64,000 nt of DNA from Gammaproteobacteria bacterium (GTDB lineage Bacteria; Pseudomonadota; Gammaproteobacteria; Steroidobacterales; Woeseiaceae): assembly GCA_009937505.1 (NCBI GenBank), contig JAACFJ010000006.1:4923-68922 (forward strand), read 5' to 3'. The notes under the pieces are model-generated. The model had not been told where the DNA came from. It was given only the letters and a program-made list of their open reading frames with translations, and made no database searches. The first letter of the stretch is position 1; each line of letters begins with the position of its first letter. This document shows, piece after piece, positions 35,353 through 38,963 of this stretch. A program made the position numbers and the translations under genes.

Positions 35353-36948
35353 CTAGTCCTGGCGCCAGACGAAGCCCAGCGAGTAGCGGCCGCGCTCGTA
35401 CTGGATGCGCGTGTCGTTCGACACGAAATCGTCGAAACGGCCTTCCAGCGCAACGCTGAACCGGGGCGTTATCCGGTAGCTGAGCGTGGCGTCCGCCCTG
35501 GCAGTTTCGAGAGTCTTGGTAGGCAGCAACGGGTTGTTGAACGCGAATGCGTTCTCGTAGTTGTAGTTGCGGTAATACCCGGAGAGCTCCAGGTCGAAGC
35601 GCGCGCCCGGGGACCAGTGAAACTCGAACTCGTAATGATCGCGGACGTAATTGCCATATCCGGCGTAACGGTCCTCACGATCGACACGTTCGTATTCGAA
35701 GCCGACCCACATGCTCCTGGTTATGCGTTGCCTCGCGAGCAGTGAAAGCCCGATGTAGTCGTAGCGAACGCCCTGGTTACCGATCGGCTGGGTGCCGTCA
35801 GGCTCGAAGGAGGGGCGGTCGCTGTACCGTCGGCTGAATTTTTCCGCCGTAACGCGCAGGAGCGACGTTTTCGTGAACGAATACTGCGTGTGAAGACTGA
35901 AGAGAAAATACTCGTGGTCGTACGACGGCACGACCTCGACATCCTCATAATCATACAGGTAGCCCTTGGCCACCAACCCGAGGGCGAGTTTCCCCCGGCG
36001 CTGACGGAAGCGGATATCCGGCCCATAGCGCGTGTAGTTCATGCGATCGCCGATATCCACGCCACCGACTGCCCGCGGCAGGCCGTCGTCGGGGTCGTAG
36101 TAGACACCGTCGCGCTGCGCGAAGCGGAAGGAGCTGAAGACTTCGCGCTTGCGACCCTCCTCCTTGCGGACGTACTCGTTGCCAACACGCAGCTCGTGCC
36201 GGAACTCGTCCGCGTCGCTCTGGTTACGGTCCTGGTAGTAATCGCCGGACGCGCGATACGCTGCGTAAAACCCTTCGAACCGGTAGGTATTGATTGTGTA
36301 TTTCGCGCCCATGTCGTAAGGAAGATAGCTGCCGGTCTGGGCCACGGGCACGATGAGCGGCAGGTTCGGGTTCGCGAAATCGATGTATGGCTCGGACGGT
36401 GAGCGAAAAACATTGGTGTCATTGCCGTAGCCGACACTGGCGAAGTAGCTGAAGTCGAAAATATCCCGTTCTTTTTGCTCTGCCACGCGCTGCTGGTAGA
36501 CGGGGTCTTCAGCGCGTTCGCCGCGCCGGATGCGCGCGATCGCGGTGCGGGCGAGGCCCGATAATTCCTCGCTGGTGCCCTGGTCGCGGGCGTAGCGGAA
36601 CCAGCCCAGCGCCTCGTCGTTATCGCCTAACGCGTAGGCATTCAGGCCGAGGTTGTAATGTGCGAGCTGCCGCAGCGATGGGGAGCGAGTCGCTTTCTGC
36701 AGCGACTCACGGGCCCGGATGTGCTGACCCGCTTTGTAATGCGCAACGCCGGTGTTGTAGTGCAGCAGTGGGGTGTCCATCCCTGCTTCGGTGGCCTGCC
36801 CGTAGCGCAACAGCGCAGCCCAGTAGAGGTCGTCACGAAACAGCCGGTTGCCATCTTTGAATAGATCCTCGGCGCTCATTGCGGCCGCGGTGCCGCTCGT
36901 GAGCAGGCACATCAGGGCGACTGCGACGGCTATGGTTCGCGCCGGCAT
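35353..36948 (-). CDS. Outer-membrane protein with an N-terminal TPR domain and a C-terminal beta-barrel (Slam/DUF560-like or PgaA/BcsC-like architecture; family not resolved)
   Basis: It has a signal peptide and about 130 aa of TPR-like helices (LYWAALLRYGQA..., HYNTGVAHYKAG, AHYNLGLNAYALGDNDEAL). About 370 aa then show alternating aromatic/polar beta-strand patterning, rich in Y, R, D and G. Confidence 0.6.
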   Translation of the reverse strand: MPARTIAVAVALMCLLTSGTAAAMSAEDLFKDGNRLFRDDLYWAALLRYGQATEAGMDTPLLHYNTGVAHYKAGQHIRARESLQKATRSPSLRQLAHYNLGLNAYALGDNDEALGWFRYARDQGTSEELSGLARTAIARIRRGERAEDPVYQQRVAEQKERDIFDFSYFASVGYGNDTNVFRSPSEPYIDFANPNLPLIVPVAQTGSYLPYDMGAKYTINTYRFEGFYAAYRASGDYYQDRNQSDADEFRHELRVGNEYVRKEEGRKREVFSSFRFAQRDGVYYDPDDGLPRAVGGVDIGDRMNYTRYGPDIRFRQRRGKLALGLVAKGYLYDYEDVEVVPSYDHEYFLFSLHTQYSFTKTSLLRVTAEKFSRRYSDRPSFEPDGTQPIGNQGVRYDYIGLSLLARQRITRSMWVGFEYERVDREDRYAGYGNYVRDHYEFEFHWSPGARFDLELSGYYRNYNYENAFAFNNPLLPTKTLETARADATLSYRITPRFSVALEGRFDDFVSNDTRIQYERGRYSLGFVWRQD

Positions 36949-37146
36949 GCCGATTCCAGGTTTATTGAGTGCGGCGGTAATTCGCTGAGTTTCCGTATCG
37001 CGTTATGTCAGATCGCCAAAATGCCCCATATTCGCCACGAAAACTATGACGTAGTGCAAGAAAATCCCCCTGGGTGGTCACCACCCAGGGGGATTGCTGC
37101 GGATTGCGCCTGATTTACGTCAGGCGGGAGGCTTTTCAGCGTGACA

Positions 37147-37725
37147 TCAATCGTCCGTTGGGTCGTCACCTTCCTCGCTTCCGTCATCGTCACCGAGGTC
37201 ATCTTCCATGTCGTCCTCGACGCCATCCTCTTCAAAGCCGGTGTCGTCTTCGGGCTCTTCTTCATCGCCCTCCATGTCGTCCTCTTCTTCGTCGTACTCG
37301 TCTTCCTCGATGTCTTCGCCTTCCTCGTGATCGTGCTCATCGTCATCGATCTCGTCGACATCGTCGATTTCTTCGTCACTCTCGAAATCGTCGTCCCGCC
37401 CGTCATCGAAGTCTTCGGCGTCGTCGTCGCCATCTTCGTCATCGAAGTCTTCGTCCTCGCCGGACTCGTGTTCCTCTTCATGCTCTGACTCGTCCTCGGA
37501 TTCATCGTCATCCTCGGGCTCGTCTTCGTCCCAGTCGTCCTCGTCGTCTTCCGGGCCCCGCATCTCGATCATCTCGTCAATGTCGTCATCGAGATCGCCG
37601 TCGTCATCGAGCACTTCCATCATGACGTCGAGATCGTCGAGGTCATCGTCGGCGCGCACGGCGGCCGGCAGGAACGCGAAACACGTCAGCACCAGGACCG
37701 CTATAAATACGTTGAAATGCTTCAT
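37147..37725 (-). CDS. Secreted, extremely acidic (poly-Asp/Glu) low-complexity protein
   Basis: A Sec signal (MKHFNVFIAVLVLTCFAFLPAAVRA) is followed by 167 residues. By my count about two-thirds of these are D or E, with only 2 Arg, no Lys and 4 His in D/E-H patches. It is co-directional with the ECF sigma/anti-sigma pair upstream and the TPR-barrel gene downstream. Confidence 0.65.
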   Translation of the reverse strand: MKHFNVFIAVLVLTCFAFLPAAVRADDDLDDLDVMMEVLDDDGDLDDDIDEMIEMRGPEDDEDDWDEDEPEDDDESEDESEHEEEHESGEDEDFDDEDGDDDAEDFDDGRDDDFESDEEIDDVDEIDDDEHDHEEGEDIEEDEYDEEEDDMEGDEEEPEDDTGFEEDGVEDDMEDDLGDDDGSEEGDDPTDD

Positions 37726-37772
37726 GGCTTTACTCCCTCAATTTCTTCCTGGACATCCAGTCCAGCCGTGAA

Positions 37773-38306
37773 TCAGGATACGTCGACCCGTAACCGGAAC
37801 GTCCGGTTGCGGTCGTCATGTTCGAGGCGGGCCAGCAGTTCGCCGCCGGCCGGCGTCAGTGCTATCAGCGTCAGCGGTAACAGGTTCTTGCCTTCCTGCA
37901 GGCTCGTCTCCCAGGTTATTTCGCGCTGCCCGGGGAAACCGGCCAGTTCGATGCCTTCGGGCAACGAGACCGTCAACGTTGCCGAGTCAAGCGCCTCGGC
38001 GGATGCGAATACCAGCCGCACGGTGTGTTCCTGTTCCATTGCGATGGTCACGCCGGGTATCGTGGGCGCTGCGTCCGGCAGCTGCGGCGTTGTCATCAGC
38101 ATCGCCGTAACTGCCCAGATCGCGAGTCCCGCCGCGATCGCGGAGCCGAAGCCGGCCAGTATCCAGCGATTGCGCTGACGGCGCGAGCCCTTGTGTACGG
38201 CACGCACGAGCGCCCGATCGTAGAATCCTGCTTCAGCTTCCGGCACCGTGTAATCCTTTAACAAGTCGAGGAGTTCCTGCTCCTCCATGTTGTCTCTGTT
38301 GTTCAT
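37773..38306 (-). CDS. Putative single-pass anti-sigma factor (non-ZAS)
   Basis: It lies immediately downstream of the ECF sigma gene (36-nt gap). It has a roughly 50-aa cytoplasmic N-terminus, one transmembrane helix (WILAGFGSAIAAGLAIWAVTAML) and a roughly 105-aa periplasmic domain. No HxxxCxxC motif is present. Confidence 0.55.
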   Translation of the reverse strand: MNNRDNMEEQELLDLLKDYTVPEAEAGFYDRALVRAVHKGSRRQRNRWILAGFGSAIAAGLAIWAVTAMLMTTPQLPDAAPTIPGVTIAMEQEHTVRLVFASAEALDSATLTVSLPEGIELAGFPGQREITWETSLQEGKNLLPLTLIALTPAGGELLARLEHDDRNRTFRLRVDVS

Positions 38307-38342: not shown

Positions 38343-38882
38343 TCAGGAAATGGTTCCATCGTTTTCCAGGATTTGACGTAACCTCGCCCGGGCCCTGTGG
38401 AGCCGTGACTTGATGGTACCAACCGGGGTCCCCGTCATGCCCTCGATCTCCTCCAGCTTGTACCCCTCGGTGTCGTGCAGCAGAACGACGAGGCGGTGTT
38501 CCTCACTGAGTTGCTGCAGTGCCGCATCCAGCCGCCGGAATTTCTCCAGCCGTTCCCGGTCATCGACCGGATCGAGATCGCCGGCCAGGTCGGCAAGCCC
38601 CTGCCCCGGCAGATGCCCCTCGTCGACGAGGTGCATGCGCTGACGGGCAAAGCGGCGGTGTTGATCGACGAACTGGTTGTACATCACGCGGCACAACCAC
38701 GAGCCGGGTTCCTCGATATTGACGAGTTCGTCGAGCTTGCCGAATGCCTTGATCAGCAGCTCCTGGAACAGGTCTTCGGCTTCGGGCTTGGTGCCGGTGA
38801 GCCGCCACGCCAGCCGGTAAAGGCGGTCGAAATGCGGTCGCACCAGGCGTTCGAAAACCTCGGTTTGGTGTGGGTCGGTCAT
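38343..38882 (-). CDS. ECF (sigma-70 family, group IV) RNA polymerase sigma factor
   Basis: Region 2 reads FERLVRPHFDRLYRLAWRLTG...AEDLFQELLIKAF...YNQFVDQHRR. Region 4 reads LSEEHRLVVLLHDTEGYKLEEIEGMTGTPVGTIKSRLHRAR. The product is 179 aa from the internal ATG. Confidence 0.9.
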   Translation of the reverse strand: MTDPHQTEVFERLVRPHFDRLYRLAWRLTGTKPEAEDLFQELLIKAFGKLDELVNIEEPGSWLCRVMYNQFVDQHRRFARQRMHLVDEGHLPGQGLADLAGDLDPVDDRERLEKFRRLDAALQQLSEEHRLVVLLHDTEGYKLEEIEGMTGTPVGTIKSRLHRARARLRQILENDGTIS

Positions 38883-38963
38883 CGCACCGCTGAGTGTATA
38901 GCTACTGTCACCCCCTTCGGCAAGGACGTGTCCTGCTATTCTTGCAGAAAAGCAGCGGTTTTG

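Follow-up and report, generated by a model that had tools for sequence, protein, structure and literature searches.

Why would a bacterium export a protein that consists mostly of aspartate and glutamate, and is the gene for such a protein real? Woeseiaceae are marine-sediment Gammaproteobacteria and belong to the most abundant bacteria of marine sediments. An initial annotation of a Woeseiaceae sequence, made from the letters alone, had pointed to such a gene in a stretch of 64,000 nucleotides (GenBank assembly GCA_009937505.1, contig JAACFJ010000006.1, positions 4,923 to 68,922 of the forward strand), which is called the window here and from whose first letter all coordinates are counted. 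In this study, we found that the acidic reading frame of this gene is maintained by selection, that its product shares two short motifs with a family of exported proteins, and that family members are encoded next to an outer-membrane protein with tetratricopeptide repeats (TPRs) and a beta-barrel. The acidic protein may be docked to this barrel, or passed through it.

The acidic reading frame is the coding frame

The gene is located at 37147..37725 (-) and codes for 192 amino acids (stop codon included in the coordinates). A Shine-Dalgarno motif, GAGGGAG, can be read from the sequence 7 nt 5' of its ATG (37733..37739 (-)). The first 25 residues form a signal peptide with n-, h- and c-regions that ends in AVRA (37651..37725 (-)); by inspection, the succession of MKH, a hydrophobic stretch, AVRA and then DDD is that of a Sec substrate cleaved by signal peptidase I. 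The Ala at position -1 is invariant in the 33 sequences of a family alignment (alignment A2), and the protein has a Cys at position 15 that is neither conserved nor part of a lipobox. The mature part of 167 aa, which follows AVRA (residue 25), contains 66 Asp and 45 Glu (111 acidic residues), 2 Arg, no Lys and 4 His, exactly as counted in the initial annotation, and the computed net charge of the protein is about -109 at pH 7. With a D+E fraction of 0.58 over the whole protein it is at the top of the 6589 open reading frames (ORFs) of at least 100 aa in its own genome (an assembly of 3.09 Mb, 88% complete), where the runner-up has 0.40, the 99.9th percentile is 0.26 and the mean is 0.10. This composition is far beyond chance. 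A tandem-repeat finder detected only weak 9- and 15-nt periodicities in the gene, which is of low complexity and not a true repeat array.

As the initial annotation had warned, the gene is overlapped by three long ORFs in other frames and on the other strand (37044..37511 (-), 37074..37625 (+) and 37141..37488 (+)). These are what speaks for an artefact of low-complexity DNA, in which case the true product, if any, would come from one of the overlapping frames. The acidic gene was aligned by codons with ten orthologues, and for six of them the same nucleotide alignments were read again in all six frames. In the acidic frame, the ratio of nonsynonymous to synonymous substitution rates (dN/dS) is 0.07-0.22 against the ten orthologues, at a dS of 0.47 to 1.7, and in the other frames, the hydrophobic and the Arg/His-rich ones among them, it is 0.8-6. 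An exception is one antisense frame, which has its wobble position in common with the acidic frame and consists of four-fold-degenerate TCN codons (poly-Ser). Its dN/dS is 0.17-0.27, never below that of the sense frame, and in the window this reading is open for 63 codons only, at the 5' end of the gene (37580..37771). Substitutions cluster at the third codon position (one comparison, for instance, has 8, 3 and 30 at positions 1, 2 and 3), and all length differences between acidic orthologues are whole codons. Because of these dN/dS values, the bias to position 3 and the whole-codon indels, we regard the Arg/His-rich and hydrophobic ORFs as by-products of the GAY/GAR codons. The acidic frame alone unites a low dN/dS, a Shine-Dalgarno motif before the start codon, and conservation of both the signal peptide and the motifs, so that an artefact is hardly credible. 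The doubt raised in the initial annotation, that an alternative frame might give the real product, is answered by the dN/dS values in favour of the acidic frame. Judged by its sequence evolution, this frame is under purifying selection and the gene is real.

The acidic protein belongs to an undescribed family with two short motifs

No Pfam family matched the acidic protein even at E values up to 10, EF-hand, RTX and calsequestrin models included, and no NCBIfam model did. The PDB sequence search made for family identification returned generic TPR matches only. A word-based search found only 22 homologues, whereas a profile built from 33 orthologues matched 258 representatives of 50%-identity clusters, 161 of them at E <= 1e-10; the gene is thus an example of a low-complexity ORF that is under-detected by word-based search. 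The best 150 of the 258 matches are small proteins of 52-266 aa, nearly all of which are matched from residue 1 or close to it. Ten family sequences were inspected, and each has the signal peptide and both of the motifs described below. A literature search found neither the family nor its gene cassette described, and a search for polyacidic periplasmic proteins yielded nothing relevant. On the alignments, these proteins are an undescribed family that consists of a signal peptide, an N-motif, an acidic linker and a C-motif.

The N-motif covers residues 26-58 of the window protein (37552..37650 (-); LDDLDVMMEVLDD...EMRGP in alignment A2). It begins directly after the cleavage site, with the consensus LDDLDVTMEVLDD-x3-LD-x2-I-x-EMRGP, and D31, L32, V34, M36, V38, D40, M55, G57 and P58 are near-invariant. 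Members can be recognised by a signal peptide followed by (D/E)L(D/E)VTMxV(L/I)DD ... EMRGP and by an acidic tail that contains DDFExGEDVD. The tetrapeptide M-R-G-P that ends the motif (37552-37563 (-), residues 55-58) is nearly invariant family-wide (M55, G57 and P58), and might serve in processing or recognition. The linker (residues 59-110, 37396..37551 (-)) varies in length, is rich in indels and is poorly aligned both in A2 and among close relatives. It is followed by the C-motif region (residues 111-147, 37285..37395 (-); DDDFE...EEGEDIEEDEYDEE in alignment A2), whose family form is DDDFE ... DDFEEGEDVDDDEFDE. In A2, F114 and D142 are invariant and D112, D117, D132, E134, G136 and D145 near-invariant. 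The initial annotation had also drawn attention to two patches of His between acidic residues. Both are present (residues 80-90 and 128-137), but they are clade-specific and not conserved: the first, SEHEEEHESGE, lies in the variable linker, and the second replaces what is F or Y in most members (the F/Y of DDFEEGED).

Among 40 distinct Woeseiaceae members, the D+E fraction of the mature part ranges from 0.32 to 0.68 (median 0.62), the length from 118 to 215 aa and the net charge from -32 to -111, and the window protein is near the extreme. The tract differs in length between relatives, always by whole codons, a comparison for which the initial annotation had called. Members found in other families of the order keep the N-motif and have much less acidic tails. 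Two such genes from outside the Woeseiaceae, each upstream of a barrel gene, show how far the tails can differ: one ends in ERDLESDL-type mixed-charge D/E/R repeats (L116, genome G032), the other in six DGDSDSFD repeats (L115, genome G222), and the N-motif is kept in both. A 241-aa ENA protein (P0022, L121) carries a foreign N-terminus rich in Lys, Ser and Thr on a near-identical acidic tail; the 1.07x coverage of its contig and a GC content that shifts from about 0.47 to 0.58 point to a probable assembly chimera.

The AlphaFold2 (AF2) model of the acidic protein has the signal peptide as its sole confident helix. With the family alignment as input, only one short helix (residues 45-53) is predicted beyond it, at a mean predicted local distance difference test (pLDDT) score of 56.9. 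The model thereby agrees with the initial annotation in predicting intrinsic disorder for the mature part (pLDDT about 50-60). The eukaryotic proteins calsequestrin and Aspein/Asprich, the latter of biomineralisation, have a similarly extreme D/E content and very low pI; there is no homology and none of the thioredoxin-like folds, so that the likeness is one of composition only. By analogy with them, a role in Ca binding or biomineralisation is conceivable.

Family members are encoded next to a TPR-barrel protein

The initial annotation had considered the acidic protein by itself. Every examined relative that keeps the flanking genes has, at this position, an orthologue that shares the signal peptide and the acidic body. 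When 31 Woeseiaceae loci were retrieved by the barrel protein alone, a member of the acidic family was immediately upstream of the barrel gene in all 31: 28 were recognised by a D+E filter, two are less acidic members, and in one only the C-terminal end is left at the end of a contig. In an even sample of the order, both genes were found in genera g1 (23/23), g19, g21 and g22, and neither in genera g18 (0/10), g20, g23, g24 and g25. Since the sampled genomes are related, this co-occurrence should be read as a pattern rather than as a statistical test. Four further families of the order also have the module, in full or in part, with differing tails. Thus, the N-motif protein and the barrel form the conserved unit, and extreme acidity characterises the Woeseiaceae clade. 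The traits that define the family are the two short motifs and the partnership with the TPR-barrel, both absent from the initial annotation. Weak profile matches in two genomes (G264:C64 and G179) have the N-motif and no adjacent barrel gene.

The barrel gene of the window (35353..36948 (-)) codes for a 531-aa outer-membrane protein with a signal peptide, in which only TPRs were matched by Pfam. No Pfam or NCBIfam model, those of BcsC and PgaA included, matched the barrel part. An AF2 model based on 27 sequences (pLDDT 85.6) predicts three to four TPRs followed by 16 strands. Assignment of lumen-facing residues by strand alternation, which is approximate and not taken from coordinates, gives 22 Arg among 116 residues, several of them invariant. 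The closest PDB folds are BcsC and also PelBC (9b8a, 6tzk, 9h80). Like the TPR-porin exporters of exopolymers (BcsC, PgaA, PelB/PelC, AlgK/AlgE), in which an unfolded charged polymer is passed to the outside, the protein combines a periplasmic TPR arm with a 16-strand barrel. Unlike them, it shows no sequence match to the known exporters and TM-scores of only about 0.37, no inner-membrane glycosyltransferase synthase is encoded nearby, and its cargo, as proposed here, would be made by ribosomes and delivered via Sec. Slam, the type XI secretion protein (DUF560, 14 strands after an N-terminal TPR), was considered and rejected, as the model has 16 strands and DUF560 did not match at E values up to 10.

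Another class of TPR-plus-barrel proteins is shorter (about 420-450 aa), has weak similarity to BBP2_2 and to PEP-CTERM-associated outer-membrane proteins and is widespread in Gammaproteobacteria. One copy is present in the own genome (G000:C5:205-1464), and others were seen at L067, L070, L075 and L083.

The barrel is homologous to the last gene of extended RloB/RloC operons

When 400 genomes from across the class were searched with a profile, three distant ones proved to encode barrel-only homologues (E 1e-43 to 1e-60). By BLASTP, the window barrel is 27% identical to a barrel-only homologue over residues 165-528 (E 3e-40). In seven of seven contexts, three from these genomes and four metagenomic, the barrel-only gene ends one type of operon (L092:2459-10072, L093, L098 and L117-L120). 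The order of its five genes is a YfiO-like TPR lipoprotein, an inactive-transglutaminase/seven-transmembrane (7TM) protein (PF14400, PF14402) of the RloB type of P. aeruginosa, an ATPgrasp_ST ligase with weak RimK similarity (PF14397) of the RloC type, a transmembrane/TPR protein of about 625 aa, and the barrel of about 400 aa. By its arrangement, the operon seems to provide the Rlo system with an outer-membrane arm, which is absent from the description of that system in P. aeruginosa (PMC11957051). The barrel gene of the window follows the acidic gene, and not genes for RloB, RloC and the transmembrane/TPR protein.

In P. aeruginosa, RloA is a secreted retropepsin that cuts Glu runs of 8 or more residues, its loss causes defects that rloB or rloC mutations suppress, and no physiological substrate of the system is known; the system has been linked to hypo-osmotic tolerance (PMC11957051). 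The Rlo system is thus tied to poly-glutamate by the specificity of RloA and by the suppressor mutations. About 10 basic barrel positions are common to both branches (R182, R302, R378, R406, R408, R424, R436, K478, R514 and R519). The homologous barrels, the shared basic positions and the connection to polyanionic peptides are what the window locus has in common with RloABC or RimK-RimB and the extended five-gene operon, and they suggest a barrel family built for polyanionic peptides. The window locus differs in that it lacks an ATP-grasp ligase and a 7TM-transglutaminase, that the TPRs are fused to the barrel, and that the polyanion is encoded in the genome and is Asp-rich and interrupted, not poly-Glu.

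Could RloC polyglutamylate the acidic protein, or an RloA-like protease trim it, so that it would itself be a substrate or primer of the Rlo system? RloB and RloC are encoded in the own genome, on contig C15 (L097:4765-7636), with no barrel or TPR gene beside them, and RloA-type enzymes cut poly-Glu and have no known genome-encoded substrate. Against this, the longest Glu run of the acidic protein is three residues, whereas RloA needs at least 8 and left a mixed D/E stretch uncut (PMC11957051). RloC is cytoplasmic and the acidic protein is exported, and RloB also occurs in genera without the acidic gene. The only retropepsin-like ORF in the own genome is fragmentary: the ORF behind RloB and RloC on C15, 114 aa long, has only fragmentary matches to Zn_protease (retropepsin-like) and RimK and is possibly a decayed rimB/rimK remnant. 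Mainly because the Glu runs are so short, we consider a role as Rlo substrate or primer very improbable.

The acidic gene follows a sigma factor and a cut-down anti-sigma factor

On the minus strand, the locus reads extracytoplasmic function (ECF) sigma factor, 177-aa membrane protein, acidic gene, hairpin, two intergenic blocks, TPR-barrel gene and uvrD; besides the cassette genes, the neighbours identified are uvrD and trkA/H (Pfam, NCBIfam). The sigma factor, the first gene of the operon (38343..38882 (-)), matches Pfam Sigma70_r2 and Sigma70_r4_2 and the NCBIfam sigma70-ECF model (83 bits; cut-off 42.9). It has the sigma-2 and sigma-4 regions only, as is typical of the ECF type, and its start, which gives 179 aa, was chosen from orthologues. 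Upstream of it (38883-38935 (-)) is a conserved sigma-70-like promoter (TTGCCG, 17 nt, TATACA/TACACT), and an ECF-type autoregulatory promoter was not recognised there. As the start codon lies only about 13-15 nt past the -10 element, the mRNA leader would be very short or absent.

The second gene (37773..38306 (-)) codes for the 177-aa single-pass membrane protein, which has no Pfam match and 1738 metagenome homologues and which, by positional homology, is a cut-down anti-sigma factor. Over its transmembrane and periplasmic part it is 42% identical to a 213-aa zinc-binding anti-sigma (ZAS) protein with the HxxxCxxC signature, encoded at the same position in a sister genus. The N-terminal ZAS domain is present in positional orthologues from sister genera and other families (L060:3417-4058, L111:1097-1774 and L114:2104-2742), to which the homology of the window protein is limited to the transmembrane and periplasmic domain, and it is missing from the window protein and has been lost in its genus.

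Behind the acidic gene lies an intrinsic terminator with a perfect 15-bp stem and a 3-nt loop, followed by UUUUCUU (37057..37095 (-); -34.5 kcal/mol, z = -6.3). Divergent orthologous loci have a hairpin with a T-run in this position too, with stems of different sequence. A scan for sigma-70 promoters and terminators gave nothing above shuffled controls and missed this real hairpin. Before the barrel gene (37001..37059 (-)), two intergenic blocks are conserved between loci that share only about 50% protein identity. TTGCRCYACGTCATAGTTT immediately follows the terminator; CTGACATAACG, which lies about 30 nt beyond it, resembles an extended -10 element (TGnCATAAC). The blocks may be promoter or operator elements. 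No ECF-type promoter could be assigned to them, and no Rfam family matched the intergenic region. A partial copy of CTGACATAACG elsewhere in the genome, tried as a sign of a regulon, is a duplicated contig end.

This gene order invites a further reading, in which the acidic protein would be a periplasmic signalling partner of the ECF system comparable to RseB/RseA or CnrX/CnrY, and cation-dependent compaction or binding to the anti-sigma factor would set sigma activity. Like RseB and CnrX, the acidic protein is exported to the periplasm and encoded by the third gene of a sigma/anti-sigma operon, here one closed by a strong terminator, and several families of the order have the same arrangement. 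However, RseB and CnrX are folded domains and the acidic protein is disordered, and the acidic gene follows the barrel gene and not the anti-sigma gene: the pair of acidic and barrel genes usually lies behind an ECF sigma/anti-sigma pair, but in reduced modules it persists without them (L011, where it adjoins ctaB, and L057, from another family). Moreover, the periplasmic domain of the anti-sigma factor is itself net acidic (8 K+R against 15 D+E), and the sigma-binding ZAS part has been lost in this genus. Because of the company that the acidic gene keeps and the acidity of the anti-sigma domain, signalling is distinctly unlikely to be its function.

Proposed docking to, or passage through, the barrel

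It is tempting to look for the function of the acidic protein at the barrel. The reading that we propose, tentatively and as something a little short of probable, is that of a Sec-exported polyanion which is docked to the adjacent TPR-barrel or passed through it. After Sec export, the signal peptide would be removed. The N-motif, and possibly the C-motif as well, would dock the unfolded chain on the periplasmic TPR arm, and the Arg-rich 16-strand barrel would then thread the chain to the cell surface or retain it in the outer membrane. The predicted disorder of the mature protein would suit threading through a narrow channel. At the surface, the carboxylates would be available to bind cations or mineral surfaces. 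The ECF sigma factor and its cut-down anti-sigma factor, which precede the acidic gene in one apparent operon, probably control its production. The proposed logic resembles that of curli (CsgA with its N22 segment, and CsgG) in the Sec signal, the N-terminal targeting segment, the unfolded cargo, the dedicated channel and the absence of ATP. The cassette has no CsgG, which forms a nonameric lipoprotein channel, and no sequence or structural relation to curli, whose cargo is amyloid and not polyacidic.

Alternatively, the polyanion might stay in the periplasm as a fixed-charge cation buffer, a Donnan osmolyte or a polyanionic holdase, with the TPR-barrel serving only as an anchor or sensor. As a Donnan osmolyte, it would be the protein counterpart of the anionic periplasmic glucans. 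The acidic protein has a Sec signal and no recognisable outer-membrane targeting domain, its linker keeps charge density rather than sequence, and the Rlo system, which has a homologous barrel, is linked to hypo-osmotic tolerance in P. aeruginosa. MdoG/OpgG was not found in the own genome, which is weak evidence because the genome is only 88% complete. On the other hand, a 16-strand pore-forming barrel would be an odd anchor, and members with far less acidic or mixed D/E/R tails (L039, with a D+E fraction of 0.32, and L116) retain the motifs and the barrel partner, which argues that the interaction between motif and barrel outweighs bulk charge. We consider a purely periplasmic role fairly unlikely.

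Several points weigh against docking or passage. The TM-scores of the barrel model to BcsC and PelBC are only about 0.35-0.38, which is generic barrel similarity. The predicted lumen also contains 20 acidic residues, so that its net charge is only about +7 under the assignment by strand alternation. Since RloB and RloC are encoded elsewhere in the own genome and RloB occurs in genera without the acidic gene, the link to the Rlo system is one of barrel homology and not of a shared pathway, and poly-Glu as the product of RloC is itself a prediction. In one genome (G264), the family member and the barrel gene are unlinked, and because of the terminator between them the acidic and barrel genes need not be co-transcribed. 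What can be read directly is the coding frame, the anatomy of the family, the strict linkage and co-occurrence of its members with the barrel gene, and the homology of the barrel to those of the RloB/RloC operons; that the chain docks on the TPR arm, crosses the barrel, binds cations and is controlled by the ECF sigma factor is what we infer.

Significance

There is a real chance that the cassette is a distinct secretion route. Potentially, one barrel family might even serve as a dedicated conduit for polyanionic peptides of two origins, an enzymatically made polymer of the poly-Glu type in the RloB/RloC branch and, in the Woeseiaceae branch, a protein with a charge of -32 to -111 that is delivered by Sec and addressed by the N-motif; we regard this wider proposal as doubtful, if attractive. 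The homology of the window barrel to the terminal gene of the extended RloB/RloC operons also provides a candidate outer-membrane exit for the Rlo system. If the acidic protein is passed through the barrel, the cassette would represent an undescribed protein-secretion route by which an abundant sediment clade is coated with a cation- and mineral-binding polyanion. A stress-regulated protein of the envelope or surface with a charge of about -100 would, if confirmed, bear on how Woeseiaceae handle cations, minerals and surfaces.

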